A stretch of 64,000 nt of DNA, from positions 3,040,001-3,104,000 of the forward strand of contig CAXXLQ010000004.1 of NCBI GenBank assembly GCA_963668695.2, read 5' to 3'. Within the stretch, counting starts at the first letter, position 1, and each line of letters starts with the position of its first letter. The position numbers were made by a program, and so were the translations under genes. The stretch comes from Vicinamibacteria bacterium (GTDB lineage: Bacteria > Acidobacteriota > Vicinamibacteria > Marinacidobacterales > Marinacidobacteraceae). The notes under the pieces are model-generated. The model did not search any database, was not told the DNA's origin, and saw only the letters and a program-made list of their open reading frames with translations. Below are positions 32,709-49,211 of the stretch, in pieces.

Positions 32709-34129
32709 ACCGGGGGGAGTTCCTCGTGCCAGGCGGTGCGCTCTTGATAGGCATGGGCGACCTGAAGGAGGCGCGCCTCGGAGAACGGCGGTCCGTAGAT
32801 CTGGAGAGCGAGCGGCCGTTTGGGGGCCTCGGCGGAGAACCCGCAACCCATCGTGAGGCCGGGGTATCCGGTCATGTTGCCGATGAAGGTGTTCCCGGGG
32901 CGGGTCGTCAGTTCATCCGGATCGGTTCCGGCCCGAACATCGCTCCCGGCTGCTTCTTCGGATCGCAGACGATCGGCAGGTGAGAACGAACTGGGCACGA
33001 TCATCACGTCGCAGTTCCGGAAGACCTCGGCCATTTCCTGCTGGAGGATGGTCCGCACCCGGAGGGCCTTGATGTAGTCGGTGGCCGGGTAGAACTTGGC
33101 CACTTCCAGGCGCTCGCGCACCAGCGGGTCAAGATCCTCGGGCTGCTCGGCGAGCCGTTTTTCGTGAAACGTCGCGGCCTCCGCCATCGCAACGATCCAG
33201 CCCGCGCTCCCCGCGAGTTGGGCGTGCGGCACCTCGACCTCGACGATCTCCGCGCCATCCGCCGTCAACAGCGCGATTGCGGTGTGGACGGCCTCCTGGA
33301 CTTCTGGCGTCGCGGCATCGAAGAAACCCGACCCCGGAACTCCGATCCGGAGGCCGGACACGTCGGGAGTGAGTCCCGCGAGGTAGTCGGGCACCGGTTG
33401 GTCGGCCGCGGTGAGATCCCGAGGATCGGCGCCGGCGATCGCGCCGAGCATGGCCGCAGCGTCCCAGGCGGTCCGGGTCATCGGGCCAGCGTGGTCGAGG
33501 GTCCAACTGAGGGTGGTGACTCCGAACCGGCTGATGCGCCCGTAGGTCTGTTTGAGGCCGATGATGCCGCAGGCGGCGGCCGGACCGCGGATGGACCCCC
33601 CGGTGTCGGTGCCGATCGAGAGCGGCACGAGGCGCGCCGCGAGCGCCGCTCCCGACCCGGACGAAGATCCCGAGGGGGTGTAGTCGGTGGCCCAGGGATT
33701 CCGCGCCGGGCCGAACCCGGAGAGCACCCCACTTCCCATTGCGAACTCGAGCAGGTTGAGCTTGCCGACCAGAATGGCCCCGGCGTCATTCAATCTCGCA
33801 GTGATCGTGGACTCGTAGTCCGGGACCCAATCTGCGGTGGCCTTCGAGCCGTTCGTCGTGAGGATGCCGGCGGTCGCGAGGATGTCTTTGGGCGCGTAGG
33901 GAATTCCGTGCAGGGGTCCGCGCCAGTTGCCGGCGGCGATTTCCGCCTCGGCTTCCCGGGCTCGCTCGCGCGCGTGGTCGCCGGTCACGGTTATGAAGGC
34001 GTTGATTGCGGGCTCCGTGGCCTCGATGTGGGCGAGGTGGGCATCCACCACTTCGACGGGTGAAAGCTCCTGACGGCGGATGCGTTCCGACAGCGACTGG
34101 GCGCTGAGCTGGCAGAGTTCGGGGATCAC
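32705..34129 (-). CDS. Amidase-signature family enzyme
   Basis: PKD, SGSSSGS, GTDTGGSIR (Lys-cisSer-Ser triad). Confidence 0.92.
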   Translation of the reverse strand: MIPELCQLSAQSLSERIRRQELSPVEVVDAHLAHIEATEPAINAFITVTGDHARERAREAEAEIAAGNWRGPLHGIPYAPKDILATAGILTTNGSKATADWVPDYESTITARLNDAGAILVGKLNLLEFAMGSGVLSGFGPARNPWATDYTPSGSSSGSGAALAARLVPLSIGTDTGGSIRGPAAACGIIGLKQTYGRISRFGVTTLSWTLDHAGPMTRTAWDAAAMLGAIAGADPRDLTAADQPVPDYLAGLTPDVSGLRIGVPGSGFFDAATPEVQEAVHTAIALLTADGAEIVEVEVPHAQLAGSAGWIVAMAEAATFHEKRLAEQPEDLDPLVRERLEVAKFYPATDYIKALRVRTILQQEMAEVFRNCDVMIVPSSFSPADRLRSEEAAGSDVRAGTDPDELTTRPGNTFIGNMTGYPGLTMGCGFSAEAPKRPLALQIYGPPFSEARLLQVAHAYQERTAWHEELPPV

Positions 34130-34131
34130 TT

Positions 34132-34449
34132 TCAGTCCCCCTCAGCTGCGGGACCCCGCGCCACGAAGAGCACGGCCGGCTCCACCAGATCTGGAATCTC
34201 GAGATCCCGGACCGCCCGGAAGAAGGCGTGATTCATCCGTACCGCCGGCAGGATCGTCGACAGACGATCAGCGGGCAGGGGATTGTCCGTCAGGCTGTTC
34301 GCGTACTCGAGCGCCGCGACCGTGGCGCCCTCGCCCGGTTTCGGGCTCGCCCCGCACCCAGCCAGGACGAGGGGCGCCGCCAAGGGGGCCACCGCGGCGC
34401 CACCCAGCAGCCGCCTACGGGTTATGGGTTTCGGATCGCGCTTGCTCAT
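34132..34449 (-). CDS. Small Tat lipoprotein, GatC/AtzG-like C-terminus
   Basis: TRRRLLGG, LAGC, VRDLEIPDLVEPAVLF; GGAGG RBS; ends 2 nt before the amidase start. Confidence 0.68.
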   Translation of the reverse strand: MSKRDPKPITRRRLLGGAAVAPLAAPLVLAGCGASPKPGEGATVAALEYANSLTDNPLPADRLSTILPAVRMNHAFFRAVRDLEIPDLVEPAVLFVARGPAAEGD

Positions 34450-34512
34450 AACGGACCTCCGTTGGCGGCAACCTCCTCCGCATTCTACCGGCGCTGTCTC
34501 CCGCGCAGTCCG

Positions 34513-34689
34513 CCAGGAGCCCGCAGTGAAATCCACGCGGCGTTCGGCCGGCGATCCATCCCGGCTGAACCGCGCCGCTCATCGTTGCGTTTCAGTCGGA
34601 ATACACCCGGTATTCCTCCCTCACGCGCCTTGTCAGCCGGGCGCCTCCCCGGCCTCGGCGCTCACGTGGGTTCCACCACAGGCTCCTAG
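34513..34689. mobile_element. MITE-like element, copy 3
   Basis: Same core; right end CCACAGGCTCCTAG; degenerate left end. Confidence 0.75.
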
Positions 34690-34722
34690 ACCCATCCGCC
34701 GGACGGGGTATCCTTATTCCCC

Positions 34723-35448
34723 GTGCTGCTTCGGGAAGCGGATCGCACGGCGGTCCGGAAACACTTCGAGGACCTCGCCGGCCCCGTTTCCGCCACTCTC
34801 TATTCCAGATACGACAGCTCGCTGGTGCTCCCCGGCCGGACGTCCTGTCCGACCTGCGGAACGACCGAAGCTCTACTTCGGGAGGTGGAAGAACTCTCGG
34901 AAAAACTCACCATCGAGGTGCGCGACGTAGATCAGGTTCCGAATGCGGCACGCGATGCCGGGATCGCTCGCCTGCCGGCGATCGAACTCACCGGCGTAGC
35001 GAAGGGGAGAGTCCGATTTCTGGGGCTTCCCGACGGCCATGAGTTCGGGTCGTTGATCACCGCGGCAACCTGGGTTTCCGGAGCACCTCTGACCATTTCT
35101 GAAGAGACCAGGGGGCAGTTGTCGATGCTTCGTCGCCCCCTCCACGTCAAGGTCTTCACCACCCCTACGTGACCCTGGTGTGCGCCGGCGGCCAGTCTGG
35201 CCGTCCAGTTCGCGGTCATTAGTCCCGAGGTGACCACCGACATCGTCATGGTTCAGGAATTTCCGGATCTGGCGCGGACCTACGCGGTGGCTTCGGTGCC
35301 GCTGACCGTGGTCGAACCGCTGGAAGACGGCGCCGGATTGGTCGGGCAGGGGACGTCGCTGCTGGGCGCGCGAGGAGAGGAAGCGTTCCTCTCCGCAATC
35401 GCTGAGGTGGGCGGAATCGGGAATTCGAATCAGGATCCGGGATCGTGA
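34723..35448 (+). CDS. Two-domain thioredoxin-fold protein-disulfide oxidoreductase, selenoprotein (UPWC)
   Basis: CPTC in domain 1; in-frame TGA 35170-35172 gives VFTTPT-U-PWC; frame continues to 35448; hairpin 35187-35205. Confidence 0.88.
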
Positions 35449-36950
35449 GCATTCATCGTCGCCGGTATCCCGGAGCCGATTGGCGGATGGACCGCCGCGG
35501 CGCGCTTCGCGTTCTCTCCGGAGGGGCGGGACTCGCTTTCGGGGTTCCCGCCTTTGGACGAGAGAAGACCCCACCGTTCTCCGAGGACTCGCTTGCCGAT
35601 CTGGACCGACGGCTCCATGCGGTACGGAGGCGATTCGGCCTGCGGCGCGCCATCGGCATTCACGTCGAAGATCTCGAGACCGGCGCACCGCTGTTCAGCC
35701 ACAACGCGGACCGAACCTACGTGCCGGCCTCCGGGATGAAGCTGCCCGTCATGGCGGCCTGCCTCCACTATCTGGGGCCGAGCTACCGCTTTTCAACACA
35801 TCTCCTGGTGAATACCCCGCCAACCGAGGCCGGAGTCATCGAAGGTCCGGTCTACGTTGTCGGGTCCGGCGACCCCAGCCTGAATCGGCACGACATGGAC
35901 TTCATCGCGGACTCCCTGGCAGCGTTCGGGATCACCGAGGTCCGTGGCGACATCATTCTGGACGACTCGTTCTTCGAAGCCCAGGAGACCGATCAGGCCC
36001 TCGTGAGCCGCCGGCTCCGTTACAAGGAGCCAATTCAGAGCGCCCTCGGCTACCACTGGAACCAGGTCGAGGTCGCCGGCGTCCCAGGCTCGGGCAATCG
36101 ACCCGACGTGCGCGACGAGGGCTATGGCTATTACACCGTCCAGAACCAGATGGTGCTCCGCAATTCCGGGCGGCCCTACATCCTGGCCCAGCGCCGGGGA
36201 ACCCGGAGGATTCGTCTGCAGGGACGAATCCTCAGGAACGGCAATGAGCGCGTCGCCCGCTTCACCGCTACCGAACCGGCCCTCTATTTCGGGTACGCCC
36301 TCAAGGGCAAACTCGTCGAGCGCGGAGTCTCGGTAACCGGGGAACCACGGCGTGGTGTGATTCCGGCGCCGGGGGACAAACTCCTTCTCTACCGCAACGA
36401 ATCGGCCCCGCTGACCCAGGTCGTGGAGGCGCTCGGCAAATACAGCAACAACTGGTCCGCCGAACAATTGCTCTTCGCCGTCGGGGCCCATCGATGGGGA
36501 CCGCCCGGAACCCGCGAGAAGGGGGTTCGAGCCACCGAGGAGTACCTCGTGGGTCTCGGCTTCCCGGCTGACACTTTCTCGGTGGACGACGGCTCGGGAC
36601 TCTCGAGAAAGAACCGTTTGAGCGCCCGCCTCCTCGTCGGAGTTGTCCGCGACCTGTATAGCCAGCCGGAGCTCCGGACCGATTTCCTGTGCTCCCTCGC
36701 CGTTTCCGGAGTGGACGGCACCCTCGCCCGCCGTCTCTGGGGCGAAGAAACCCTCGGCCGGGTGATGGCCAAGACGGGAACGCTGAGCGGCGTCAGTTCG
36801 CTCTCGGGCGTAGCCTTCCCGCTGGCCGCCGAGAACCGGGCGCTCGGGTTTTCGGTGATGACGAACGGCATCCGCAACTCGTGGAATGGCGACGCGGTCG
36901 AAAACCTGATCGCCGCCGAACTCGTTCGCTGGAACGGCGTGTCCGCCTAG
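35445..36950 (+). CDS. dacB: D-Ala-D-Ala carboxypeptidase/endopeptidase (PBP4, S13)
   Basis: PASGMK (SxxK), SNN, DGSGLSR, KTGTL. Confidence 0.92.
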   Translation: MSIHRRRYPGADWRMDRRGALRVLSGGAGLAFGVPAFGREKTPPFSEDSLADLDRRLHAVRRRFGLRRAIGIHVEDLETGAPLFSHNADRTYVPASGMKLPVMAACLHYLGPSYRFSTHLLVNTPPTEAGVIEGPVYVVGSGDPSLNRHDMDFIADSLAAFGITEVRGDIILDDSFFEAQETDQALVSRRLRYKEPIQSALGYHWNQVEVAGVPGSGNRPDVRDEGYGYYTVQNQMVLRNSGRPYILAQRRGTRRIRLQGRILRNGNERVARFTATEPALYFGYALKGKLVERGVSVTGEPRRGVIPAPGDKLLLYRNESAPLTQVVEALGKYSNNWSAEQLLFAVGAHRWGPPGTREKGVRATEEYLVGLGFPADTFSVDDGSGLSRKNRLSARLLVGVVRDLYSQPELRTDFLCSLAVSGVDGTLARRLWGEETLGRVMAKTGTLSGVSSLSGVAFPLAAENRALGFSVMTNGIRNSWNGDAVENLIAAELVRWNGVSA

Positions 36951-37313
36951 CGGCCTGTGAACAAAGTCACGCGGCATTCCCGAGCCAGAAGGGATGGTGG
37001 TCGGGTGATCCCGCCCCCCGTCCCTTCCGCTCCGGGGTCTCCGCGGTGCTCCCGCCCCGCTCCGGAAGCCCGAGTCAAGAGGGATCGGGGTCGGGTGATC
37101 CCGCCCCCCGTCCCTTCCGCTCCGGGGTCTCCGCGGTGCTCCCGCCCCGCTCCGGAAGCGACCGGCGATGCATCCCGGCTGAGCCGCGCCTCTACGAGGC
37201 GCTCATCGTTGCGCTTCGACCGAAATACTCTCGGTATTCCTTCCTCGCGCGCCTTGTCAGCCGGGCGCCTCACCGGTCTCGGTGCGCACGCCACCTTGTC
37301 CACAGGCTGCTAG
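36947..37313. mobile_element. MITE-like element, copy 4, with internal 2 x 90 bp tandem duplication
   Basis: CTAGCGGCCTGTGAAC...TCCACAGGCTGCTAG; units near 36979-37068 and 37069-37158. Confidence 0.8.
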
Positions 37314-37330
37314 CCGCGGACGGGAGAGCG

Positions 37331-38428
37331 GTGAGGGGCGTCCCCGGACTCGATCCCCCGGAATACGTCGACTGGAGCGAGGATCCGGAACTCCTCCGTG
37401 AGTTCGCGGCGGTGCCCCTGAACGACTCCGCGCGCGCTCAGATCGTTCAGGATCTCGGCGAGCCGATAAGGCTCCGCCTCTACGAAGGTCTGGTCAGGAA
37501 CCGCCTCTACGACCTTCAGTTGAAGCGGTGGGTCCGTTCCGGGGTGCTCTCCAAGGCATGGCTCGGGCCTGGCGAAGAAGCCGTGACCGTGGGGGCCTGC
37601 CACGCGTTGGAGCCGGGGGACGTGGTCGGGCCGATGATCCGCAACATCGGCGCCTTTCACGAACGGGGGATGAGTCTTGCCTCCATGTTCCGGGGAGCGC
37701 TCGGAACCGGGGACGGACCGGCACGGGGCAGGGATCTCCATTTTGGAGACCTCACGCGCGGCATCGTCGCGCCGATCAGCATGGTCGGTTCGCTGCTTCC
37801 GGTCTGCGCCGGCATGGCTCTCGCATTCCGGCTCCGGGGCGAGTCACGGGTCGCGCTGACCTGGGCAGGCGACGGCACCACCGGAACCGCGGCGTTCCAC
37901 GAAGGCATGGTCTCGGCGGTCGCGCTCAAGACCCCGCTGATCGTGGTGATTCAGAACAACCGGATCGCCCTGGGCACTCCGCTGGACGATGGAGCCGACG
38001 AACGCTTCGCGCGCCTCGGGGGCGGATACGGGATTTCCACATTGCCAGTGGATGGCAACAACGTGCTGGATGTCTTCGCGGCCACCGCACTGGCCCGGAA
38101 GGAGGCCCTGAGGCATTACCGACCCGTGTTCGTGCTTGCCGACACCTTTCGGATGGGCGGACACGCAACCCACGACGAGGGAGAGAGCCGGCGAATCCTG
38201 CCCGCCGAACTATTCGATCACTACGGGCGCCGCGATCCGGTCGGCACCTATCGAGCTTTTCTGCGGAAGGGCGGGATCGGAGGCGAGCCAGTGGCCGAAT
38301 CCGTCCTGAAGGACATCGAGGCGCGAGTCGGGGCGGAAGTCGAGAGTGCCGAACGCGAGGCGTTGGCCTCGCACCGGTTTGCGCGACCCGATCCCGCTAC
38401 GGCGGGGGAAGGGGTCTTCGCCCGCTGA
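37331..38428 (+). CDS. TPP-dependent 2-oxoacid dehydrogenase E1 alpha subunit
   Basis: GEEA, GDG...QNN TPP motif, FRMGGHATHD. Confidence 0.88.
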   Translation: MRGVPGLDPPEYVDWSEDPELLREFAAVPLNDSARAQIVQDLGEPIRLRLYEGLVRNRLYDLQLKRWVRSGVLSKAWLGPGEEAVTVGACHALEPGDVVGPMIRNIGAFHERGMSLASMFRGALGTGDGPARGRDLHFGDLTRGIVAPISMVGSLLPVCAGMALAFRLRGESRVALTWAGDGTTGTAAFHEGMVSAVALKTPLIVVIQNNRIALGTPLDDGADERFARLGGGYGISTLPVDGNNVLDVFAATALARKEALRHYRPVFVLADTFRMGGHATHDEGESRRILPAELFDHYGRRDPVGTYRAFLRKGGIGGEPVAESVLKDIEARVGAEVESAEREALASHRFARPDPATAGEGVFAR

Positions 38429-38434
38429 CGACCT

Positions 38435-38589
38435 TTAACAACCGGTGGTGAAACCCACGCGGCGTTTGCGTTTGGGTCGAAATACACCCGGTATTCCTCC
38501 CTCACGCGCCTTGTCAGCCGGGCGCCTCGCCCCCACCGGGAGAACTGGCCGGCCTCGGCACTCACGCGGGCTCCACCACAGGCTGTTAA
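38435..38589. mobile_element. MITE-like element, copy 5
   Basis: TTAACAACCGGTGG...CCACAGGCTGTTAA; same core. Confidence 0.77.
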
Positions 38590-38612
38590 CTTGGGGGCTT
38601 TTGCCCGCTGAC

Positions 38613-39050
38613 CTAAAGCCGCATCTTGGCCGGGAAGTGGTTCAGCCCGAGGCGTATAGCGGTACGGTCCGTCTGGTCCACGATCGCGGCGGCGTTGATG
38701 CCGATCGCGATGACGATCGCTTCGCTGATCTCTTCCTTGGTGGCCCCGAGTTTGAGGGCCTTCTTCACATGACCGTCGAGGCATCCCTCGCACTTGGCGA
38801 TTAGCGAGCAGGCGAGCGCGATGAGCTCCTGAATCTTCGGATCCAGATGCTTGTTCTCCGAAAAATAGGTCTCTTTGTAGAACTGACCGTAGATGGCCTT
38901 CATCCGCGGCTCGATCATCGAATACGACGTCAGCGCCGAGCCGTTGTTCTTCTGTCCGCCGCTTTTTTCTTTTTCGCCGCTCCCGCGCTGCTCCGGCTCG
39001 GAGTCGATGCCGGGGATCCGGGCCTCGGGGGCCGCTGCGTTGTCCGCCAT
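38613..39050 (-). CDS. Carboxymuconolactone decarboxylase / AhpD-like protein
   Basis: LDPKIQELIALA..CEGCLDGH..GATKEEISE; start uncertain. Confidence 0.87.
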   Translation of the reverse strand: MADNAAAPEARIPGIDSEPEQRGSGEKEKSGGQKNNGSALTSYSMIEPRMKAIYGQFYKETYFSENKHLDPKIQELIALACSLIAKCEGCLDGHVKKALKLGATKEEISEAIVIAIGINAAAIVDQTDRTAIRLGLNHFPAKMRL

Positions 39051-39166
39051 TCCGGATGTTGCCTCATGCCCGCCACTCTGGCCGGGACTTCGTCTCGGGG
39101 GGACGGCGGGTGGAGCGGCCGCTTGTCTGGCGCCGCCCGCTCAGCGCGTCGAAAAGGGAGTAACCG

Positions 39167-39655
39167 GTGAAGGTTAGCATCAGGGAAACGATGCAGACCT
39201 TTCGATGTTCCGTAGCCTTGACGGCTCCGCTCGACGCGGTCTTTGGGTTCTTTTCGAACACCAGGAATCTGGAGGTGCTGACCCCGCCGTGGCTCCGCTT
39301 CCGGGTACTCACAGAAGGAGAGATCCCGATGTCCCGCGGCACGCAGATCGACTATCGGCTGCGGCTTCGCGGTCTACCGCTCCGGTGGCGTAGCGAGATC
39401 ACCGCGTGGGAGCCGCCGCATCGCTTTGTGGACGAACAGGTAGCTGGCCCCTACCGGAGCTGGGTTCATGAACACCGCTTCGAGGCCCGCGAGCGGCCGG
39501 GCAGGGACCCGGTGGTGGTCGCTCATGATGAAGTGCACTACCAGGCCCCGGGCGGAAGGTTCGTGAACCGGTTCCTGGTTGCGCCTGACCTCGAACGAAT
39601 CTTCGCCTACCGCACCAAACGGCTGAGGGAGCGGTTCGGAACGCCCGGCGGCTGA
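39167..39655 (+). CDS. SRPBCC family protein
   Basis: NLEVLTPPW, FVDEQVAGPYRSWVHEHRF, IFAYR. Confidence 0.87.
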   Translation: MKVSIRETMQTFRCSVALTAPLDAVFGFFSNTRNLEVLTPPWLRFRVLTEGEIPMSRGTQIDYRLRLRGLPLRWRSEITAWEPPHRFVDEQVAGPYRSWVHEHRFEARERPGRDPVVVAHDEVHYQAPGGRFVNRFLVAPDLERIFAYRTKRLRERFGTPGG

Positions 39656-39820: not shown

Positions 39821-39823
39821 AAG

Positions 39824-40299
39824 CCGCGCCAGCGGCTTCGGATAAGCACCGCCTCCTTCATCGGAAGTCGCGAAGGGCTGTCCTGGGTCCGGATCGTGGC
39901 TCAATCCCGATCGGAAGTCGCCCTCGCGACTTCGCATCCGCAGCCATGTCGCACCGGGGGCCCGCCCGCATATCAGGGCGCGCTTATCGGACGCCGCGCC
40001 AGCGGCTTCGGATAAGCACCGCCTCCTTCATCGGAAGTCGCGAAGGGCCGTCCTGGGTCCGGATCGTGGCTCAATCCCGATCGGAAGTCGCCCTCGCGAC
40101 TTCGCATCCGCAGCCATGTCGCACCGGGGGCCCGCCCGCATATCAGGGCGCGCTTATCGGACGCCGCGCCAGCGGTCGGACGCCGCGCCAGCGGTCTTCG
40201 GATAAGCACCGCCTCCTTCATCGGAAGTCGCGAAGGGCCGTCCTGGGTCCGGATCGTGGCTCAATCCCGATCGGAAGTCGCCTTCGCGACTTCCGATAA
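39824..40299. repeat. Tandem ~170 bp repeat (about 2.7 units) rich in XerC-arm-like half-sites
   Basis: GATAAGCACC recurs at 39841, 40011 and 40201; third unit runs into dif. Confidence 0.9.
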
Positions 40300-40316
40300 G
40301 GATGCTTATGTTAAAT
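40289..40316 (+). other. dif: dif site (XerC/XerD recombination site)
   Basis: ACTTCCGATAA-GGATGC-TTATGTTAAAT: 11-6-11 layout; right arm identical to the E. coli XerD arm; GGGCAGGG polarity flips here. Confidence 0.88.
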
Positions 40317-40358: not shown

Positions 40359-41258
40359 TCACCCCTGCTCGCGAAACGCCGTCACGTCGCGGTGGAAGAC
40401 GAATAGCGAATCCATGTCTTCCGACGGCGATTCGAAGTTGTAGGTTCGCCCGCCAAGCACCTTCACACGCAGGTTGTTGCTCAGGTAGTCCAGCTCGAAG
40501 CGTTCCGCCTGTGCGAACGGCAACTGGAAAGCATCCTTGTGATCCGTCCGGTAGTCGAACCCCTGGGGAGTTGCGACGAGCGTCCCTTCGCAGGATCCGA
40601 ACCGATGTTTGTGTACCACGGCCACCTTGACGTCCAGTGACGCCACCAGGTCGCCGAACACCACTCGCACCGGCACCGCTCTCCTTTCGACCGCCACCCG
40701 ACGGGAAACGATGTCGTGCCCCTCGGTAGACACCGTCAGGTTGTACTCCCCGGGCTGAAGATCCGCGATCGTGACCGGGGTGTTTCCCTTGAAGTTCCGG
40801 TCGATAAAGACGTTCGCTCCGGCGATGTCACTCTCCACGACGATGGACCCGAGCATTTCGGCGAGGGTCGCCGCCAACGAGCGGGTGCGGCCACCGCGGA
40901 TGGTGACGCTGACCTCCAGGGGATGGAAGCCTTCCTTCTCCACTCGAACCGGGTACTCACCGGCATCCAGGTCTTCCCAGGTGCCCGGAACCGTGCCAAG
41001 CACCCGGCCGTCCAGAATGACACTGGCGCCATCGGTGCCCTCGATCTGCAGGGTACCGGTGGTGGGCGGTGCCGGCGGTGGCGGCGGTGGCGCTCGCTCT
41101 GGTTCCGGCGCCTTGACCGGCGTCTCGTCGGCCGGTGCGGCTTCTTCCTCCGGGGCCGCAGGCTCCTCGCCTCCCCCACATCCTGCCAAGGCGCCGACCC
41201 CCGCCAGCAGGGCCAGTGACCCGAAGAGAATGCGCGCCCACTCAGCGAGGCGAATCAT
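40359..41258 (-). CDS. PEGA-domain lipoprotein
   Basis: LAGC lipobox; two repeats GASVILDG...G-T-P and GANVFIDRNFKGNTP. Confidence 0.85.
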   Translation of the reverse strand: MIRLAEWARILFGSLALLAGVGALAGCGGGEEPAAPEEEAAPADETPVKAPEPERAPPPPPPAPPTTGTLQIEGTDGASVILDGRVLGTVPGTWEDLDAGEYPVRVEKEGFHPLEVSVTIRGGRTRSLAATLAEMLGSIVVESDIAGANVFIDRNFKGNTPVTIADLQPGEYNLTVSTEGHDIVSRRVAVERRAVPVRVVFGDLVASLDVKVAVVHKHRFGSCEGTLVATPQGFDYRTDHKDAFQLPFAQAERFELDYLSNNLRVKVLGGRTYNFESPSEDMDSLFVFHRDVTAFREQG

Positions 41259-41760
41259 TCACGGAGCCCCCCACCTCACGGTAACCCCGGTCGTAGTAGA
41301 GAAGCGGTGCGGCGTCCTCCCGCTCTACCCTGCCCTCGGTCACCCGGCCGATGAACAGCGTGTGATCGCCCTCCCGGTGGGCGCCGACCGTGCTGCACTC
41401 GAGCCAACCGATACAGCCGGACAGTCGTGGCGGGTACCCAGCCCCGCCAGCCGCCACCGCTGCAGCAAGAGACTCGCCGAACTGATCGGCCGAGTCCAAC
41501 CCCGGCTTCGCGAAGTGGCCCGAGACGTCAGCCTGATCAGCAGCGAGAAGGTGCACCCGAAATCCCCCGGCGGCGATCGCAGCATGCGCCCGGGCGGCGT
41601 TCATGATGGAGACGAGCACTAACGGCGGTTCGAGACTCACGGGGATGAACGAACTGACGGTGATCCCTCTCGGCCCCTCTGGACCGCTCGCGGTCACGAC
41701 GGTCACAAGTTGCGGAGCGCGGCGCATCAGAGCACGAATCTCCGAGGCCGCGTCGCTCAT
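41242..41760 (-). CDS. Flavin reductase family protein
   Basis: VTVVTA, GITVSSF..VSLEPP, GDHTLFIG, PLLY. Confidence 0.92.
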   Translation of the reverse strand: MSDAASEIRALMRRAPQLVTVVTASGPEGPRGITVSSFIPVSLEPPLVLVSIMNAARAHAAIAAGGFRVHLLAADQADVSGHFAKPGLDSADQFGESLAAAVAAGGAGYPPRLSGCIGWLECSTVGAHREGDHTLFIGRVTEGRVEREDAAPLLYYDRGYREVGGSVNDSPR

Positions 41761-41764
41761 CCAG

Positions 41765-42244
41765 CTACGACCGCGTCTCGTCCAGTTCCTCGAAATCGGC
41801 TGTATAGCTGATGTCCACGGCGCCCTTCAGGGTGTTTGCGAGAGGGCAGCCGCGCTCATGGAAACGGAGGGCCCGTTCCGCTTCTTCGCGTTTACCGGCC
41901 GGCAACGCCACTTGGTACCGGATCCGGATGGCGCGCAACGCCATGACGCCGCCCTCGTCCACGATGTCGCCTTCGATTTCTGCCGAGAGCCGATCCGGCT
42001 GGCTCGGGATGCCGCGTACTTCGAGCGCCCGCCCGAACGTCCCCACCATTCAACCACCGGTGGCGGCCACCACGTAGTCAAGGGTCGCCGGCAACTCTTC
42101 CGCTGGCGTTACCCCATAGAAGGCAGCGATTCCGCTGTGGACGCCGAAACGGACCGGCTGCTCGAAGTCCTCAAGGAATGCCTGCCGGACCGGACCAGCC
42201 TGCTTGATGACCCGGGCGTGGCAGGTATGGACAACTTTGCTCAT
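41765..42244 (-). CDS. OsmC-like selenoprotein
   Basis: TLDYVVAATGG-TGA(42050-42052)-MVGTF in frame; second Cys in ERGCPLANTL; hairpin 42020-42037. Confidence 0.87.
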
Positions 42245-42786
42245 CGCGACTCTACGAAGATCTCGGAATGGAGCATCTTCACCGGGGCTCCGGCCTTCGC
42301 CGTCGGCAGGGACAGTTCCAGGGTGGTGCTGGTAGGAGCACTGCACGCGTTGTCCGTACAGAGCTGGTAGCGAACCAGCACTTCCGCATCCGCCGAACGT
42401 CCGCTCTTGAGGACAGAAGTAACGGGAATGCGGATCGCCACCGTCCCTTCGTAGAGATCGTATTCACCAAGACCGGAAAGATCCCGCCGGATCGGCTCCG
42501 GATAGAACGGCTGTCCGCTTTCGAAAGCCCCACCCTGGGCCAGTTCCACGACCGTGGCGGTGGGGAATGCCTCTTCGGGTCCGTAGAGGTGGTATCCCTC
42601 TTCGAGTTCTGCGACTACCGCGACTTCGAAGCTGTCGCCGGGACGCACCGGGGACTGGGAGGCCACCAACTCGAAGCGCGCCGCGTTCTCCCAATCGGGA
42701 ATCATCGGCGCCTGGGCGGCAAGGGCGGCAGCAAGGCCGCCGGACACGGTCAGGGCGAGGCCGGACAGCAGGAGAGAGTGTTTCAT
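42241..42786 (-). CDS. Secreted DsbD N-terminal-like domain protein
   Basis: Signal peptide; GYHLYG; YQLCTDNACSAP. Confidence 0.8.
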   Translation of the reverse strand: MKHSLLLSGLALTVSGGLAAALAAQAPMIPDWENAARFELVASQSPVRPGDSFEVAVVAELEEGYHLYGPEEAFPTATVVELAQGGAFESGQPFYPEPIRRDLSGLGEYDLYEGTVAIRIPVTSVLKSGRSADAEVLVRYQLCTDNACSAPTSTTLELSLPTAKAGAPVKMLHSEIFVESR

Positions 42787-42817
42787 GGGACGAAACTCCT
42801 TGGGATTGGGCTCGCGA

Positions 42818-43399
42818 TCAGGATCCGGCGAGACGGGAGAGCTCGGAAAGGATCTCCTTGGGGGAGGTCCGGTCGCGGTAGTTCACCCACACGTTGACGA
42901 ACCGAACTACGCCGTCACCATCCACGATGATGGTTGCCGGATGGGGAATGCCTTCCCGCTCCGTGCCATTGTGCTCCGGATTGGGGATGCCGTATTCGCT
43001 GATGACCTGACCTCCGTCCACCATGATCGGGAACGTCCAGTCATTCTTCGAGAGCCACATCAGGGTGTCCCCCACCCCGTATTTGGAAACGCCGAGTACC
43101 GTGACGCCGCGCGCCTCGAACTGATCCAGGGACTCTTGCAACTCGCCGAGTTGCGCAATGCAGAATGGTCACCAACCGCCACTGCGGAAGAACTCAAGAA
43201 CGACCGGCCCTCGCTTCACGAGTTCGGAGAGTCGGTAGGAGGCGCCGTGGGCGTCCTTCAGTTCGAAATCGGGCGCGCGGGCACCAACCTTCACCGTCGG
43301 GGTGTCGGTGCCCTGCGCGGATCCGCTGGAAGGGGCGAGGCCCGTGGCCAAGCCGACGGCCAGCAATGCAGAGACAGGAAGTCGAGACATGCGGGCCAT
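42818..43399 (-). CDS. Secreted AhpC/TSA peroxiredoxin-like selenoprotein (UPFC)
   Basis: APDFELKD..VVLEFFRSGGW-TGA(43169-43171)-PFCIAQLGEL in frame with the downstream ORF; hairpin 43138-43154. Confidence 0.9.
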
Positions 43400-43568
43400 T
43401 TTAGCCCGGCTGTTTCGATGCCAAGAAGACGGCCAAGGCCGAAAGGAACGATTCGTCTCCTACGGGTTTCCTGGTCGATCAGCGGCTAACCACGAATTGC
43501 GGCGCATAACGGGCCGCCCCACCAGCATTGGCCGCCGGCGTTCACCTTCGGGGACCCTGTCGATCTGT

Positions 43569-44444
43569 CTATCCTGTTGATTCACCTTCGCTTGTGTCCG
43601 ATGTCGGCGCGCCGACATCCTCACGTTGTTCTTCAAGCTGCCGTAACAACGTGCGGAGTGCCTCCACCACTTCCGCCTCCTCGACCTCACTGCGCCGGAA
43701 GGTCAACTGGAGGCGAAAGGGGCCGCCCTTGGGGGCGAACCGGAAGACAAACGGTCGCGCTCGTTCTCCCTTGGACTTTCTGCGCTTCGGGATCGGTTCA
43801 TTCAGTCCCTGGGCGAGGCGTTGGACGCACGCCAGCATGGCCTCGACATTCGGCTCGCGGGCCACTCGCAGCAACTGTCGACGAGACACGATCCCCGACG
43901 CCCAGGAGACCTCGCGGATCTCTTCCGGAATGTTGAGCAGGGCAAGCGTCTCCGTGATCGAGGTGCGTCCTTTGCCCACCCGGCGGGCGAGAGAGTCGTG
44001 AGTGTGTCCATGCTCCCTGATGAGCCCCTCGTACGCGGTGGCCTCCTCAAAGGGAGACAGGTCGTCCCGGAGCAAGTTCTCCACCAGAGCCAGCTCGAGG
44101 GCGTCCCCTGCCCCCGCCTCCCTCTCGATGCAGGGCACTTCGCGCAATCCGGCCAGCACCGCCGCCCGGTAGCGGCGTTCGCCAGCGATGATCTGAAAGT
44201 CCTTCGAGCCCAGTCGGCGCACCAGGATCGGCTGCAGGATTCCCTGGTCCCGGATCGAGGTGGCGAGCGGTTCCAGCGCTCCGATGCGTTGGCGCGGCTG
44301 ATCGGGATTGGGGTGGATCTGAGCGGTTGGGATCATCCGTTGACGGGCGCCCGGCTCATCGGGGGTCAGCCCCGCCACGTAGTGGCTGTCACGCGGTTTC
44401 AAGCTGACTTTTTCAGGAAGACCGGTTCGTTTGGACACGGGCAA
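43569..44444 (-). CDS. parB: ParB/Spo0J family protein
   Basis: NPDQPR, LQPILVR, IAGERRYRA, ENLLRDDL, HTH. Confidence 0.9.
   Translation of the reverse strand: MPVSKRTGLPEKVSLKPRDSHYVAGLTPDEPGARQRMIPTAQIHPNPDQPRQRIGALEPLATSIRDQGILQPILVRRLGSKDFQIIAGERRYRAAVLAGLREVPCIEREAGAGDALELALVENLLRDDLSPFEEATAYEGLIREHGHTHDSLARRVGKGRTSITETLALLNIPEEIREVSWASGIVSRRQLLRVAREPNVEAMLACVQRLAQGLNEPIPKRRKSKGERARPFVFRFAPKGGPFRLQLTFRRSEVEEAEVVEALRTLLRQLEEQREDVGAPTSDTSEGESTG
43600..43619. promoter_or_regulatory. Perfect palindrome, candidate non-canonical parS
   Basis: GATGTCGGCGCGCCGACATC in the 3' end of parB; function inferred only. Confidence 0.4.
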
Positions 44445-45189
44445 GCACCTCCCGAGACAGATGTCGGTAATCCTCAGCTCCTCGAGAGTTGGGGGCGAAC
44501 GTGAAGATGGACTCCTTGTACGCAGGACTCTCCTCGAGTCGGACGTTGCGGCTGATCAGCGTTCGGAATACCGCTTTCCCGAAATGCCCGCGGATCTTGC
44601 GGATCGCGTCCCGGGCAATCCGCGTCCGCTGATCGGCCATGGTGATCACCACCCCGAGGATGGACAGATCCGGATTGGGGCGCCGGCGGACCTGCTCGAG
44701 CGTGTCGAGGAGATCGTCGGCCCCTTCGAGGGCGTAGTACGTCGGCGGCAGCGGCAACAACAGATAGTCACTGGCAACCAGCGCATTCACCGTGATGAGC
44801 CCCAGGGTGGGAGGGGTGTCGATCACCACGAAATCGAACTGCTCCCGGACATACTGGATCCGATCCCGGAGCCGGTAATGGGCGTCGATGTCGCCAAGAA
44901 GTTGGCGCTCCAATTTGGCCAGCGAGATGCGCGCCTCGGCCACCGACAGGCGTTCCACCGATGTGGGCCTGATGATGTCCGCGAACCGCACCTCACCCGT
45001 CAGAGCCTCGAGCATTGAGGCTCTGGATGGGTCCGGGCCGATGACACTTACCGAGGCGTTTGCCTGTGGGTCCACATCAACGAGCAGCGTGCGGTGTCCG
45101 GCGTCCGCGAACGCCGCCGCCAGGTTGACCGCGGTCGTGGTCTTGGCCACCCCGCCCTTCTGATTGGCGACGGTGATGGTGGCGCGCAT
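44413..45189 (-). CDS. parA: ParA/Soj family ATPase
   Basis: NQKGGVAKTTT, DVDPQAN, IDTPP. Confidence 0.92.
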   Translation of the reverse strand: MRATITVANQKGGVAKTTTAVNLAAAFADAGHRTLLVDVDPQANASVSVIGPDPSRASMLEALTGEVRFADIIRPTSVERLSVAEARISLAKLERQLLGDIDAHYRLRDRIQYVREQFDFVVIDTPPTLGLITVNALVASDYLLLPLPPTYYALEGADDLLDTLEQVRRRPNPDLSILGVVITMADQRTRIARDAIRKIRGHFGKAVFRTLISRNVRLEESPAYKESIFTFAPNSRGAEDYRHLSREVLARVQTNRSS

Positions 45190-45367
45190 TTAGCAGCCTG
45201 TAGACAAAGTGACGTGAGCGTCGAGGCTGGGGAGGCGCCCGGCTGACAAGGCGCGATTTGGGAGGAATACCGGATGTATTCCGACCGAATCGGAACACAG
45301 AGCGTAGCGGTTCAGCCGGGATGCATCGCCCGCCGAACGCCGCGTGACTTTGTCCACAGGCTGCTTG
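45190..45367. mobile_element. MITE-like element, copy 6, abutting the parA ATG
   Basis: TTAGCAGCCTGTAGACAAAG...CTTTGTCCACAGGCTGCTTG; same core. Confidence 0.8.
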
Positions 45368-45371
45368 GTGC

Positions 45372-45872
45372 TCAGTGCGCGTCGCCGAGATCGTCCTCGT
45401 CGAGGGCTTCGAGCCAGTCGCCGAGCGCCTCGCTGTCCTCTGGCGGTTCCACGTCCTCTGCCATGAGCTCTTCGGCCCGCCGCGCCCCGCGCTCGATGAC
45501 ACGCGAATGGACGAAGATGGGCGCCCGGGTCCTTAGCGCCAGCGCTATCGCGTCGCTCGGGCGGGCGTCCACCGCGAGCCGCTGCCGTTTCCGCTCCAGA
45601 TGAACATGCGCATAGAAAGTGTTGTCCTGAACATCATGGATCACCACCTTGATCACCCGCGCGTCCAGCTCCCTGAGGAGTTCCCGGATCAGGTCGTGGG
45701 TGAACGGGCGCGGGGGTTCGTAGTTCTCGATCTGAAGGCCGATCGCGCGCACCTCCATGGGTCCCACCCAGATGGGAATTTCCCGATCGCCGGATTCCTC
45801 CTTGAGCATGACCACTGCGGCGCTGGTCCGCGGCACCATCAGGATCGCCTTGATGCTTACCTCAATCTCCAC
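45372..45872 (-). CDS. Bifunctional nuclease (DUF151) family protein
   Basis: IPIWVG..E, RPFTHDL, DARPSDAIALA. Confidence 0.92.
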   Translation of the reverse strand: MEIEVSIKAILMVPRTSAAVVMLKEESGDREIPIWVGPMEVRAIGLQIENYEPPRPFTHDLIRELLRELDARVIKVVIHDVQDNTFYAHVHLERKRQRLAVDARPSDAIALALRTRAPIFVHSRVIERGARRAEELMAEDVEPPEDSEALGDWLEALDEDDLGDAH

Positions 45873-45893
45873 GGTCAGCTCCTCGTTGGTTCT

Positions 45894-47423
45894 TCATCTG
45901 GGCAGTAGCTGCTCGCGGACATTGCTGCCGGGAACCGCCTGTACTACCGGAAGAGGGATTTCGGATGTCCACGCGTCGGGATCCGCCGCGGGAGCCGGGG
46001 ATTCAAGGGCGGTCCGTCGTGGCTCCCCTGAACTCACGAGCTTTCCTATCAGGCTGTTCGGACTGAACCCGGTAATCATGACCTCGCCGAAGCCTCCGGT
46101 AGCCTCCACGGGACCGTCGAAATTGACGATCCGGTTGTCGGGGCCTCGTCCCGCAAGTTGATTGCCCTTTCGGCTGGGCCCTTCGATCAGAACTTCGACC
46201 TTGCGGCCCACGAGATCGCGGTGGAGAGACAACTGGATCTCTCGCTGTCTCGTCTGCAATTCAATTAGCCGTTCGGTTTTTTCGGTATCCGGGACATCGT
46301 CCGGCAGACGTTTCGACGCGAGTGTATGGGGACGCTCGGAGTACTTGAAGGAATACACCGATGAAAAGCGCACCTCATCGAGGAGGGTCAACGTGTCTTC
46401 GAACTCGTTCGCGGTTTCACCGCAGAACCCGACGATGAGGTCCGTGGAGAGCGCAAGGTCGGGAGCCCGCTCGCGCGCCCGGAGGACGAGTTCCAGAAAT
46501 CCCTCGCGGCTGTAACCACGACGCATGCGCTCCAGCACACTCGTCGAGCCGGATTGCGCGGGCAGATGCATGTGTGGCATCAACGGTCCCCCGGCCGCAA
46601 AACGGTCCATGAGTTCCTCGCTGAAATCCTTGGGATGAGGACTCGTAAAGCGGATCCGGCGGATTCCCGGTACTGCCCCCACCGCATCGGTCAACTCGGC
46701 AAAGCCAAGTCCATCCTCCGGATCCCGATAGGAATTCACGTTCTGGCCGAGTAGCTGGATCTCCGCGAACCCCGACGCTGTGAGGGATTCGGCTTCCCGC
46801 ACGATCGACGCTACGGTCCGGCATCGCTCACGTCCCCTGGTGAAGGGCACGACACAGAAAGAGCAGAAGTTGTCGCAGCCCTCCATGATGGTGATGTACG
46901 CCTTTACCCCGGGAATCCGATCGATCTGCTCCGGCGGGATGTCGAGGTTGTCCGGGTGCCGCCCGATTTCGACAATCCGGGACTCGCCATCGAGTAGCCG
47001 GCGCACGACATCCGGAAGACACACGAGGCTCTGGGTGCCGAGGACGAAGTCGACCGCGGGCGCCCGGCCGAAGATGGCTGCCCCTTCCTGCTGGGCCACG
47101 CATCCTGCCACGCCGATCAGTTGGGGGCGCTTCCGGCCCCGACCGACGAGCTGCTCCACGCGGGCAAAGACCTTTTCCTGCGCCTTTTCGCGAACCGAAC
47201 AGGTGTTCAGGACGACGACCTCCGCGGGTTCGGCTCCCGCCGGACGGCAGCCCAGCGTTCCGAGCGCGGCCGCCATCTTCTCCGAGTCGTGGACGTTCAT
47301 CTGGCAACCCCAGGTTTCGATCCGGAATCGGAAAGGAGCGCGCGATCCCCGGCCGGACAGGTCGCTGACTGAACCGGGAAGGGCGGCTGGACCGGCCAGG
47401 GGGTCGCTTGTCCAGACGGTCAT
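45894..47423 (-). CDS. miaB: tRNA methylthiotransferase MiaB
   Basis: GCQMNVHDSE, NTCSVRE, CDNFCSFC radical SAM motif, TRAM domain. Confidence 0.95.
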   Translation of the reverse strand: MTVWTSDPLAGPAALPGSVSDLSGRGSRAPFRFRIETWGCQMNVHDSEKMAAALGTLGCRPAGAEPAEVVVLNTCSVREKAQEKVFARVEQLVGRGRKRPQLIGVAGCVAQQEGAAIFGRAPAVDFVLGTQSLVCLPDVVRRLLDGESRIVEIGRHPDNLDIPPEQIDRIPGVKAYITIMEGCDNFCSFCVVPFTRGRERCRTVASIVREAESLTASGFAEIQLLGQNVNSYRDPEDGLGFAELTDAVGAVPGIRRIRFTSPHPKDFSEELMDRFAAGGPLMPHMHLPAQSGSTSVLERMRRGYSREGFLELVLRARERAPDLALSTDLIVGFCGETANEFEDTLTLLDEVRFSSVYSFKYSERPHTLASKRLPDDVPDTEKTERLIELQTRQREIQLSLHRDLVGRKVEVLIEGPSRKGNQLAGRGPDNRIVNFDGPVEATGGFGEVMITGFSPNSLIGKLVSSGEPRRTALESPAPAADPDAWTSEIPLPVVQAVPGSNVREQLLPR

Positions 47424-49211
47424 TCAGGAACCCGCAAACGCCCCCGGAAACCCGGCGCTGTCGCCGCCGGAAGACTCGGTGTTCGCGCCGGCGAGCAATT
47501 GCGACGCGTGCTCCCGGGCACTGTCGGTAATCTGGGGACCAGCGAGCATACGGGCGATTTCTTCGATCCGGGCGCTGTCGTCGAGGCAGCGAACGCGAAC
47601 CGCATCGCCGGATTCTAGTTTCTCGACGACCAGATGGGCTCGGCCGAGGGCCGCCACCTGAGGAAGATGCGTAACCGAGACGACCTGGCGCGACACGGCA
47701 AGACGACGAAGGCGCCGCCCGACCGCATCCGCAATGCGCCCGGACGTGCCGGTGTCCGCTTCGTCGAAGATCAGGGTATCCGCGCCTCCCTCCCCCGCCC
47801 CGGCCGCTTTGAGCGCCAGGAAAAAACGCGAGGACTCGCCACCCGATGCAACTTCGCCGATGGGAGCGGGCACCATCTCGGGACTGGCGCTGAAGAGAAA
47901 ATGGACGCGGTCCAACCCGTGCTCCGTGAAGTGCTCCGTGCCCGCGTCCACTTCCCGTTCCGATCGTCCCCGTAGAGCCTTGATCCCGATCAAGAAGCGC
48001 GCGCGCGGAATACCGAGCCCAACGAGTTCGTGCTGTACCTTGCGCGCGAGTGCCTCCCCGGCGGTCTCGCGGGCAGCGTGGAGCGATGCGGCCAGGTTCC
48101 GGTAGCGGATAGCCCCAGCCTCTGCGGCCGTCACCGCCCTTCGGCGCTCCTGGGCCTGATCGGTGAGCTCGGAGAGTGCGACCCGGATCTCTTTCGCGCG
48201 CTCGAGCAGGGCGTCGGCTCCACCCGTTCCCCCCGCATGGCGGCGCTCGAGACCGCGCAGTACGACGAGGCGGTCTTCGATCTCCGCGAGCCGCTCGGGC
48301 GCCGCCCGGACGCGGTCCCGCCGATCCCGCACGCCAGCAGCCAGATCCTCCACTTCGACGAGCAGATCCGGACGTCCGTCGAGCAGTCGGGCGGTCTCCG
48401 GGTCCAAGGCAGCCGCGCCGTCAAGCGCACGAAGCGCGATCGCCAATTGCGCACCCGCTGCCGTTTCTGACCCGTAGAGCGCCTGATATGCACTCTCGAG
48501 ACGTCCGGCGAGCTGGTCCGCATGCCCGAGTGCACGCCGCTCGACCAGCAGGGATTCCGTCTCGCCCGGTTCCGGCGCAGCGCGCTTGATCTCCTCAAGA
48601 GCGCGTTCCATCGCGGCACGCTGAAGCTCCGCCTGGCAGAGCCGGTTTTCCAGAGCGTCACGCTCGTCCTCGGCAGCGCGAAGCACCCGGAGGGCCGCCG
48701 CCACCTGCCGCCGCAAGGCGGCATGTCCGCCCACCGCATCCACGCTTTCCCGGGCAGCCCCGGGTTGGAGCAGGGCCAGATACTCTCCCTGGCTGTACAC
48801 CTCGGCAAGCAGCATTCCCACCGCCCGGAGCCCGGCCACCGGGATCGCTGCGCCGTTCAGGGAAATCCGATTGGCAGCCGAGCGCCGCCCCGGTGCGAAA
48901 CGCAGTTCCCGCCGTACCACGAGTTCGCCGTCCTCGGTCGAAACGCCAGCCTCTTCACATAGCGCCAGCAGCCGCTCGCTGGCTGCTGACGCCTCGTCCG
49001 ACAGGGTGAATCCCGCCTCGACAACAGCGCGATCTCCAGCAGGTCCTATGAGCTGGGAACGGCCGCGGCCGCCCAGGATGAGGCCCAACGCCTCCAGGAG
49101 AATGCTCTTCCCGACGCCGGTCTCGCCGGTAACGACGTTCAGGCCTTCCCCGAATTCGAGAGAGACATCCTTGAGGAGGGCGACGTTTCGCGCCCGCAGC
49201 CAGTGAAGCAT
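47424..49211 (-). CDS. recN: DNA repair protein RecN
   Basis: TGETGVGKS, coiled coil, ASGGE, IFDEAD, THLPQVA, EIARML. Confidence 0.93.
   Translation of the reverse strand: MLHWLRARNVALLKDVSLEFGEGLNVVTGETGVGKSILLEALGLILGGRGRSQLIGPAGDRAVVEAGFTLSDEASAASERLLALCEEAGVSTEDGELVVRRELRFAPGRRSAANRISLNGAAIPVAGLRAVGMLLAEVYSQGEYLALLQPGAARESVDAVGGHAALRRQVAAALRVLRAAEDERDALENRLCQAELQRAAMERALEEIKRAAPEPGETESLLVERRALGHADQLAGRLESAYQALYGSETAAGAQLAIALRALDGAAALDPETARLLDGRPDLLVEVEDLAAGVRDRRDRVRAAPERLAEIEDRLVVLRGLERRHAGGTGGADALLERAKEIRVALSELTDQAQERRRAVTAAEAGAIRYRNLAASLHAARETAGEALARKVQHELVGLGIPRARFLIGIKALRGRSEREVDAGTEHFTEHGLDRVHFLFSASPEMVPAPIGEVASGGESSRFFLALKAAGAGEGGADTLIFDEADTGTSGRIADAVGRRLRRLAVSRQVVSVTHLPQVAALGRAHLVVEKLESGDAVRVRCLDDSARIEEIARMLAGPQITDSAREHASQLLAGANTESSGGDSAGFPGAFAGS

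Follow-up and report, generated by a model that had tools for sequence, protein, structure and literature searches.

The 28-bp sequence at positions 40289–40316 of the stretch examined here is very probably the single dif of a marine acidobacterial chromosome, and the octamer GGGCAGGG the FtsK orienting polar sequence (KOPS) that directs FtsK to dif in this lineage. The stretch, hereafter the window, is 64,000 nucleotides long and corresponds to positions 3,040,001–3,104,000 of contig C4 (3,913,787 bp, G+C 67.5%), which belongs to the four-contig assembly of a Vicinamibacteria bacterium (G000). An initial annotation, made from the letters of the window alone, had placed the replication terminus at this site, where oppositely oriented copies of GGGCAGGG converge. 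That the gamma domain of FtsK would read GGGCAGGG, and that XerC and XerD would recombine the 28-mer, is proposed by analogy with the paradigm of Escherichia coli, Vibrio, and Pseudomonas. The features discussed below are collected in Table 1.

The putative dif has the 11 + 6 + 11 bp layout of such sites. Five of the six positions of its inner dyad are paired (positions 7–12 against 17–22), above the threshold of more than four pairs used for the 28-bp core (Kono et al., 2011). Across all four contigs the 28-mer is single-copy: the runner-up match carries 9/28 mismatches, contigs C1 to C3 hold no dif-like 28-mer with nine mismatches or fewer, and no second dif with up to five mismatches over the 22 arm positions was found in the assembly. 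The site lies at chromosome position 3,080,289, which is 6,165 bp from the maximum of the cumulative GC skew (3,074,124). The skew minimum of C4, at 1,098,083, is 1.3–1.8 kb from dnaA, with the AAA+ domain of DnaA mapping to 1,096,265–1,096,765. The distance from dnaA to dif (1.98 Mb) amounts to 50.7% of the chromosome, as does that from the skew minimum, and the two replication arms measure 1,982,220 and 1,931,567 bp. Near dnaA lie an origin-type ParA/ParB pair (1,089,2xx–1,090,466) and the one site in the assembly that matches the canonical parS consensus perfectly (1,090,521). Inside the window, GC skew flips sign near 34–40 kb. The claim of a genuine chromosomal dif on which the motifs converge, unique and opposite oriC, is thus borne out; neither a missing skew inversion nor a better dif elsewhere, which the initial annotation had named as fatal to it, was seen.

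The window holds 17 copies of GGGCAGGG, compared with an average of 5.9 and a maximum of 12 in 100 dinucleotide-preserving shuffles. Ten forward copies and one reverse copy lie to the left of dif, against none and six to the right (Fisher p = 5.7e-4). The + strand is the leading strand to the left of dif, this segment being located between the skew minimum and dif. All 17 coordinates listed in the initial annotation proved exact. Its remark that only reverse copies occur on the right holds for GGGCAGGG, of which no + strand copy exists within 100 kb to the right of dif on the chromosome, but not for the degenerate GGGNAGGG, for which the 33 matches in the window divide, forward/reverse, into 19/2 to the left of dif and 2/10 to the right.

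At the scale of the chromosome, with the GC-skew minimum and dif taken as the boundaries of the arms, the leading strand carries 323 copies of GGGCAGGG and the lagging strand 62 (83.9% leading, binomial p 5e-44), a skew that places the word first among the octamers ranked, that is, words with at least 60 copies. The strand bias thus found genome-wide belongs to GGGCAGGG in particular and not to GGGNAGGG as a whole, whose other three words are 60–69% leading (A, 181/115; G, 245/160; T, 50/22). The cumulative strand count of GGGCAGGG peaks at 3,079,499 (804 bp left of dif) and declines from 3,081,328 (1,025 bp right of it), the two copies that bracket dif, with window positions 39506 (end of the first) and 41328 (start of the second) as the limits given for the switch in the initial annotation. 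On the leading strand, the 323 copies compare with 126 expected under an order-2 Markov model (2.6-fold over-representation) and with 240 under an order-6 model; on the lagging strand, the 62 copies compare with 113 expected (order 2), or 0.55 of expectation.

Such a bias could in principle be an unselected by-product of gene orientation, codon usage, and the general excess of G over C: G is enriched on the leading strand, and many G-rich octamers are 57–65% leading. However, GGGCAGGG is the most skewed of the 56 words made of six G, one C, and one A, with 84% against a median of 56%. To separate transcription from replication, open reading frames (ORFs) were called crudely from G+C by codon position (1,297 ORFs, 49% of C4), and only 54% of them lie on the leading strand. 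The share of GGGCAGGG on the leading strand is nevertheless the same in leading-strand ORFs (82/100), in lagging-strand ORFs (70/82), and elsewhere (171/203), or 82, 85, and 84%. This equality indicates that polarity follows the replication arms, not transcription. Furthermore, leading copies outnumber lagging ones in 36 of the 40 100-kb bins, whereas the other octamers of high rank are repeated locally, several of them in a stretch of about 30 kb at 2.80–2.83 Mb. The results on composition, ORFs, and bins already largely refute an origin as a by-product, which we regard as very unlikely.

Both the skew and the density of GGGCAGGG rise steeply toward dif, the former from 68% over the 500 kb nearest the origin to 92–100% at less than 100 kb from dif, the latter from 0.55 to 2.4 copies per 10 kb. 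In the 7% of the chromosome centered on dif, 47 copies point toward the site and 2 away from it (skew 0.96). This gradient bears on a second alternative, according to which the polarity of GGGCAGGG has nothing to do with FtsK, the word serving as a Chi-like signal for RecBCD or AddAB or as the target of another replication-oriented reader and inverting at the terminus merely together with the leading strand. Any leading-strand-biased word would indeed do so. In addition, the FtsK gamma helix of the family to which the window belongs differs from the helices known to read GGGCAGGG, and sister families with a canonical helix lack strong GGGCAGGG polarity (see below). On the other hand, a rise toward the terminus is what separates architecture-imparting sequences from merely strand-biased words such as Chi (Hendrickson et al., 2018, introduction). 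The steep increase therefore sets GGGCAGGG apart from simple strand-biased words and weakens this explanation. Avoidance on the lagging strand also argues against it, as does the identity of GGGCAGGG with the experimentally established KOPS core (Nolivos et al., 2012). On balance, we consider a reader other than FtsK improbable.

The assembly encodes the machinery that the proposed KOPS and dif would require. It holds one FtsK gamma domain (PF09397, 76.7 bits for a cut-off of 30.6), located in an 811-residue open frame, which aligns over its full length with the solved gamma domains of E. coli and Pseudomonas aeruginosa (2j5p, E 4e-7; 2ve8/2ve9). XerD is recognized with 336.1 bits (equivalog cut-off 329.6). 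A second Xer protein scores best as XerC, with 326.7 bits, above the cut-off of 279 of the NF001399 subfamily, and its gene adjoins a topoisomerase I-like ORF (named by eye). Every computable property of a dif is therefore found at 40289–40316: a proper core, a single copy, a skew shift opposite the origin, encoded XerC and XerD, and synteny in relatives (see below). Likewise, GGGCAGGG has the computable properties of a KOPS, being a G-rich octamer of the GGGNAGGG type whose skew inverts at dif and rises toward it and which is over-represented on the leading strand of a genome with an FtsK gamma domain. In the mechanism proposed, GGGCAGGG, enriched on the leading and avoided on the lagging strand of both arms, would orient FtsK. 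After loading via its gamma domain, FtsK would translocate toward dif and activate recombination, and XerC and XerD would resolve chromosome dimers there during division, where the replication arms meet.

Comparison with relatives points in the same direction. A dif of this type (at most three mismatches) is present exactly once per genome in 35 of the 41 genomes of the order, a tally that includes G000 and an unpublished genome without a match (G033); a reversed-pattern control gave one match overall. In the same tally, gamma domains are present in 40 of the 41 genomes; the sequence from G033 was left out of the comparisons below. Regions of 60 kb on each side of dif were taken from 12 relatives, eight of the same family and four from two sister families. 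The strand switch of GGGCAGGG at dif is found in all eight same-family genomes, with the following numbers of copies pointing toward and away from dif: G010 25/0, G014 19/2, G004 18/1, G022 14/2, G017 18/1, G018 19/1, G019 16/2, and G020 12/0. Pooled (141/9), GGGCAGGG is the top octamer de novo; in the same pool, GGGAAGGG gives 87/18, GGGTAGGG 11/1, and GGGGAGGG 79/35.

A scan of named contigs with the pattern CTTCCGATAAG-N5-TTATGTWAA retrieved at least 118 loci from many phyla. Among the matches listed with 10-kb flanks, one carries the identical 28-mer (L055, Candidatus Marinacidobacterium sp., a member of the Acidobacteriota, class Vicinamibacteria), and near-identical 28-mers occur in Candidatus Marinacidobacterium or Vicinamibacteria loci (L082, L071, L054, L088). 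In these flanks, again among the matches listed, GGGCAGGG points 58 times toward and 4 times away from dif in 17 loci with Acidobacteriota titles, and 52 times toward and 12 times away in 63 loci of other phyla, which shows that the word is not confined to Proteobacteria. The initial annotation had spoken of a proteobacterial-type KOPS; the word itself is indeed GGGCAGGG, the top polar octamer, but the label is too narrow.

Several observations weigh against the identification of GGGCAGGG as the KOPS and of the site as dif. Completeness and contamination of the assembly are estimated at 91.7% and 9.3%, respectively. The XerC candidate scores slightly below the TIGR02224 equivalog cut-off (326.7 against 335.15 bits). 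By total count, GGGCAGGG is only 32nd of the 56 words of its composition, and its switch on the origin side is diffuse, located 33–125 kb from dnaA. The assignment of FtsK as the putative reader of GGGCAGGG is itself made by analogy. Finally, the gamma recognition helix of the window's family, GYQRARRIVAELE, is unlike that of E. coli (71–81 bits with Pfam, against 97–105 in the sister families), and in the sister families, whose helix is more E. coli-like, GGGCAGGG points 7 times toward and 7 times away from dif (four genomes, 60 kb on each side).

The contrast between these families extends beyond the helix. In the window's family, the region around it (…MLQTEMGLGYQRARRIVAELERQG…) is nearly invariant and unusual, and the 15 aligned sequences, G000 included, share the core KASTSMLQTE[ML]GLGYQRARRI[VI]A[ED]LERQG. 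In the sister families, the core (14 sequences aligned) approximates ASVSHLQRRLRLGYSRAARIVDMLEADG, nearer to E. coli, and the region (…HLQRRLRLGYSRAARIVDMLEADG…) is canonical. Their G+C content is about 0.60 and GGGCAGGG is rare within 60 kb of dif. When 200 kb were taken on each side, GGGCAGGG pointed toward and away from dif 14/6 times in G031 and 12/3 times in G026, compared with 55/3 in G000. The octamer list of G031 is headed over the same distance by AGGGGAGG (21/0), and GAGAAGGG is weakly polar in the sister families (24/5 pooled). Strong GGGCAGGG polarity thus appears to go with the less canonical gamma helix, which may or may not affect recognition and which we do not take as evidence against GGGCAGGG as the KOPS. 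Two sister groups that differ in both gamma helix and GGGCAGGG polarity offer a natural contrast for how FtsK gamma reads DNA.

The XerC side of dif carries a tandem repeat and two palindromes, P1 and P2 (Table 1). The first two copies of the repeat run on from GCGACTTC into GCATCCGCAGCCATGTCGCACC, and the third from GCGACTTC into CGATAAGGATGCTTATGTTAAAT. What follows each of the two full copies is a degenerate sequence resembling dif, with a XerC arm, ACTTCGCATCC, unlike that of dif itself. The 170-bp repeat was not found elsewhere in the assembly. It carries 11 half-sites resembling the XerC arm (at most 2/12 mismatches) within 480 bp to the left of dif, or 12 with the arm of dif itself, whereas the genome averages 0.6 per 20 kb. 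Overall, about 120 bp of conserved palindromic flank are found on the XerC side, made up of P2, a third half-site, and P1.

Palindromes of the P1 type, defined by 12 or more pairs out of 18, occur on the XerC side in 12 of the 29 dif loci of relatives, namely in 10 of the 15 dif-bearing genus members and in G017 and G018, and on the XerD side in none of the 29; shuffled flanks averaged 7–9 pairs, with maxima up to 13. Six other members of the genus have P2 at a distance of 79–118 bp upstream of dif, and G000 has it in several copies through the tandem repeat. P1 or P2 is kept in most genus members. In alignments of sequences picked for having the palindrome, 91.4% of cells are paired for P1 (11 sequences; one compensatory pair, 3 cells) and 90.2% for P2 (7 sequences; two compensatory pairs, 5 cells), which lends modest support to possible selection on the pairing.

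No Rfam family was detected in 39000–41000 (best ALIL, 14.8 bits for a gathering score of 50), and a scan of 39000–41500 found neither classic terminators nor promoters. Metatranscriptome contigs from four runs of one study cover the flanking genes but not 39904–40254, and stop at 40294–40303, exactly the repeat boundary; since this is where assemblers break, the stop lends no weight to the palindromes as terminators. The RNA contigs of two of the runs (X1, X2) diverge from the window at 39795–39826, at the start of the tandem repeat, which hints that related strains differ in the repeat region. Candidate roles for P1, P2, and the repeat include terminators without a U-tract for the convergent genes, extra XerC sites or an accessory cruciform, and products of unequal exchange at dif. 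A role of P1 and P2 as binding sites of a terminus ParB is unsupported, their sequence being unrelated to that of the palindrome at the parB gene. Among the titles and abstracts listed for dif, XerC, accessory sequences, and palindromes, none describes such features.

The same flank raises the question of whether, instead of a working dif, the 28-mer could be what Xer-integrating mobile elements leave behind, as a scar or as an attachment site. The repeat copies, two full and one partial, end within the XerC arm, the full ones running into dif-like sequence as described above; G+C drops to the right of the site, from about 0.67 to about 0.64; and in G004 about 14 kb separate dif from the genes that usually form its left flank. 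In this last genome (L164–L166), matches to S13 peptidase, E1 dehydrogenase, CMD, and SRPBCC lie 14.7–18.4 kb from dif, compared with 0.3–4 kb in G010, G014, and G019, the P2–P1 palindromes are still beside dif, and the SRPBCC match is split in three pieces. These distances suggest that about 14 kb were inserted immediately beyond the palindromes. Nevertheless, neither a better dif nor a second one exists in the assembly, the site is the point of convergence of KOPS and GC skew alike, and dif and its XerD-side neighbors (in order, genes for PEGA, flavin reductase, ParB, ParA, and MiaB-like proteins) are syntenic in all eight same-family genomes. Moreover, a repeat unit of merely 170 bp with a different XerC arm in its pseudo-site fits poorly with a simple integration junction. 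Because of the size of the unit and the XerC arm of the pseudo-site, and because no second site with up to 5/22 arm mismatches exists, scars of Xer-integrating elements were rejected for now as the source of the tandem repeat. We hold it extremely unlikely that the 28-mer is anything of this kind.

A second ParAB pair is encoded on the XerD side, 3.3–4.9 kb from dif. Its ParB and the origin-proximal ParB are paralogues (51% identical over 144 residues), and the two ParAs are 39% identical. ParB lies 3.1–4.5 kb from dif in all eight same-family genomes. In addition, the pair is beside dif in G026 and 12–50 kb from it in G040, G027, and G031. The 3′ tail of the terminus parB contains a perfect 20-bp palindrome, whose core TGTCGGCnnGCCGACA (at most two mismatches) is found at or just past the 3′ end of this gene in 10 of the 12 relatives, the exceptions being G017 and G022. 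Extra copies occur 186–341 bp from dif in G014, G022, G003, and G011. From these sequence patterns, the terminus ParAB pair and the palindrome may form a second, terminus-linked system of the ParABS type. Among the titles and abstracts listed for ParB and ParA near dif and the terminus, none describes such features.

Taken further, these elements would make the terminus an organized unit. In this broader and rather doubtful proposal, accessory XerC-arm palindromes would recruit XerC or form a cruciform, the dedicated ParAB pair would act on the parS-like TGTCGGCnnGCCGACA to position or segregate the terminus, and the divergent gamma helix would still read GGGCAGGG, a word that the sister families with a canonical helix would have relaxed. 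If functional, the palindromes adjacent to dif and the terminus ParAB pair would be new accessories of terminus biology.

Regarding its genomic surroundings, dif occupies the gap between two convergent genes. The SRPBCC-like gene on the left is also syntenic beside dif in G010, G014, G019, and G020. The stop codon of the PEGA gene is 43 bp from the XerD arm, and in all eight same-family genomes the gene is no more than about 110 bp away from dif. No Pfam match was obtained for three ORFs within 41603–43489. The G+C content is 0.63–0.655 to the right of dif (42000–48000 and 52000–64000) and 0.66–0.70 to the left.

Outside the window, the stretch of about 30 kb on C4 mentioned above (approximately 2,800,000–2,830,000) has a GC skew of 0.20–0.31 and a G+C content of up to 0.71, contributes a jump of about 6,600 to the cumulative GC skew, and is packed with the repeated octamers GTGGGAGA, ACGGACTA, GACAGTGC, and GGTGACGG. 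It probably consists of one or more giant repetitive genes. These four words, together with ATGTCGCA and TCGCAGTA, were considered as further architecture signals and rejected, with 26% to 70% of their copies falling in a single 100-kb bin.

Table 1. Features of the dif region and their positions in the window.
Feature	Position	Strand	Details
dif, 28-bp XerC/XerD site	40289..40316	+	reads ACTTCCGATAA-GGATGC-TTATGTTAAAT
XerC arm of dif	40289-40299		ACTTCCGATAA
Central region of dif	40300-40305		GGATGC
XerD arm of dif	40306-40316		TTATGTTAAAT
Left arm, ten GGGCAGGG pointing to dif	3824..39506	+	at 3824, 13632, 16035, 20795, 27169, 28396, 34273, 35344, 37726, 39499
Non-permissive left-arm copy of GGGCAGGG	9826-9833	-	
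Right arm, six GGGCAGGG pointing to dif	41328..62016	-	at 41328, 44106, 51697, 58653, 58752, 62009
Tandem repeat, 170-bp unit	39823..40293	+	copies 39823-39992 and 39993-40162 (99% alike)
Third, partial repeat copy	40182-40293		98% over 112 nt; ends within XerC arm of dif
19-nt duplication	40157-40196		
Palindrome P1	40264..40303		inverted XerC arm ATCCCGATCGGAAGTCGC, 4-nt loop CTTC, GCGACTTCCGATAAGGAT (XerC arm + first 4 central bases); 18-bp arms
Palindrome P2	39982..40017		GCTTATCGGACGCCGC gcca GCGGCTTCGGATAAGC; two inverted XerC-arm-like half-sites
Left flank gene, SRPBCC / polyketide-cyclase-like	39167..39655	+	runs toward dif; Pfam PF10604, E 3.7e-7
Right flank gene, PEGA-domain protein	40359..41258	-	runs toward dif; Pfam PF08308, E 3.9e-28
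Terminus parB	43569-44444	-	
Terminus parA	44413-45189	-	
Perfect 20-bp palindrome	43600-43619		GATGTCGGCGCGCCGACATC; in 3′ tail of terminus parB; sole perfect copy in assembly
Candidate target sequence for terminus ParB			TGTCGGCGCGCCGACA

Among known systems, some of the accessory features resemble those of plasmids. The Xer sites cer and psi have accessory sequences of about 180 bp on the XerC side of the core; PepA binds these together with ArgR or ArcA, and they do not repeat the XerC arm. The likeness to the dif described here would be one of layout alone, that is, a XerC-side flank: in the present case the flank is made of inverted XerC-arm copies and belongs to a chromosomal site, in a genome that has both KOPS and FtsK.

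With respect to the Firmicutes-type dif, the XerC arm of Bacillus subtilis begins with ACTTCC, a start shared by the XerC arm of the present site. The pattern CTTCCGATAAG-N5-TTATGTWAA also matched Staphylococcus, Paenibacillus, Listeria, and other Bacillota among the matches listed. In the SpoIIIE recognition sequence (SRS) of B. subtilis, the polar word is GAGAAGGG, read by SpoIIIE, whereas here it is GGGCAGGG. A dif had been predicted in the three Acidobacteria then available, solely or chiefly with the Firmicutes profile (Kono et al., 2011).

The closest likeness is to the dif–XerCD–FtsK systems of E. coli, Vibrio cholerae, and P. aeruginosa, with which the present one shares an 11 + 6 + 11 bp site in one copy at the junction of the arms, the polar word GGGCAGGG (core of GGGNAGGG), and an FtsK that ends in a gamma domain of the winged-helix type. 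The XerD arm TTATGTTAAAT is identical to that of E. coli, while the XerC arm ACTTCCGATAA is unlike GGTGCGCATAA, the XerC arm of E. coli. The system described here further differs in belonging to the Acidobacteriota and not to the Pseudomonadota, in its gamma helix GYQRARRIVAELE, in the palindromes and tandem repeat on the XerC side, and in the restriction of strong genome-wide polarity to the C variant of GGGNAGGG. For GGGCAGGG, the skew over the whole genome is 0.84 and that over the 7% around dif is 0.96; the corresponding values for GGGNAGGG in E. coli are 0.91 and 1.0 (Nolivos et al., 2012, Table 1).

According to Nolivos et al. (2012), GGGCAGGG is an architecture-imparting sequence "in most Proteobacteria". 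Outside this phylum, it has been proposed as the KOPS of Deinococcus radiodurans, whose FtsK bound DNA carrying GGGCAGGG; in that study the motif is reported to be rarer than in E. coli, and the substrates were the dif and KOPS of E. coli (mBio 2022, PMC9764985). A single literature search joining KOPS, FtsK, and Acidobacteria turned up no account of a KOPS in this phylum. The prediction of dif in Acidobacteria and the role of GGGCAGGG as a KOPS are both already in print, and the annotation is correct and largely routine. The interest lies mostly in the XerC-side palindromes and repeat, the gamma-helix contrast, and the terminus ParAB pair. In addition, the origin–terminus axis of an uncultured marine acidobacterial chromosome is now fixed, with dnaA and parS at 1.09 Mb and dif at 3.08 Mb. 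Like D. radiodurans, this bacterium is a non-proteobacterial carrier of GGGCAGGG; the evidence here is purely genomic, and the skew statistics are much stronger. It offers a clean case outside the Proteobacteria in which the E. coli word is the single most polar octamer, which supports the view that the FtsK steering code is older and wider than this phylum.

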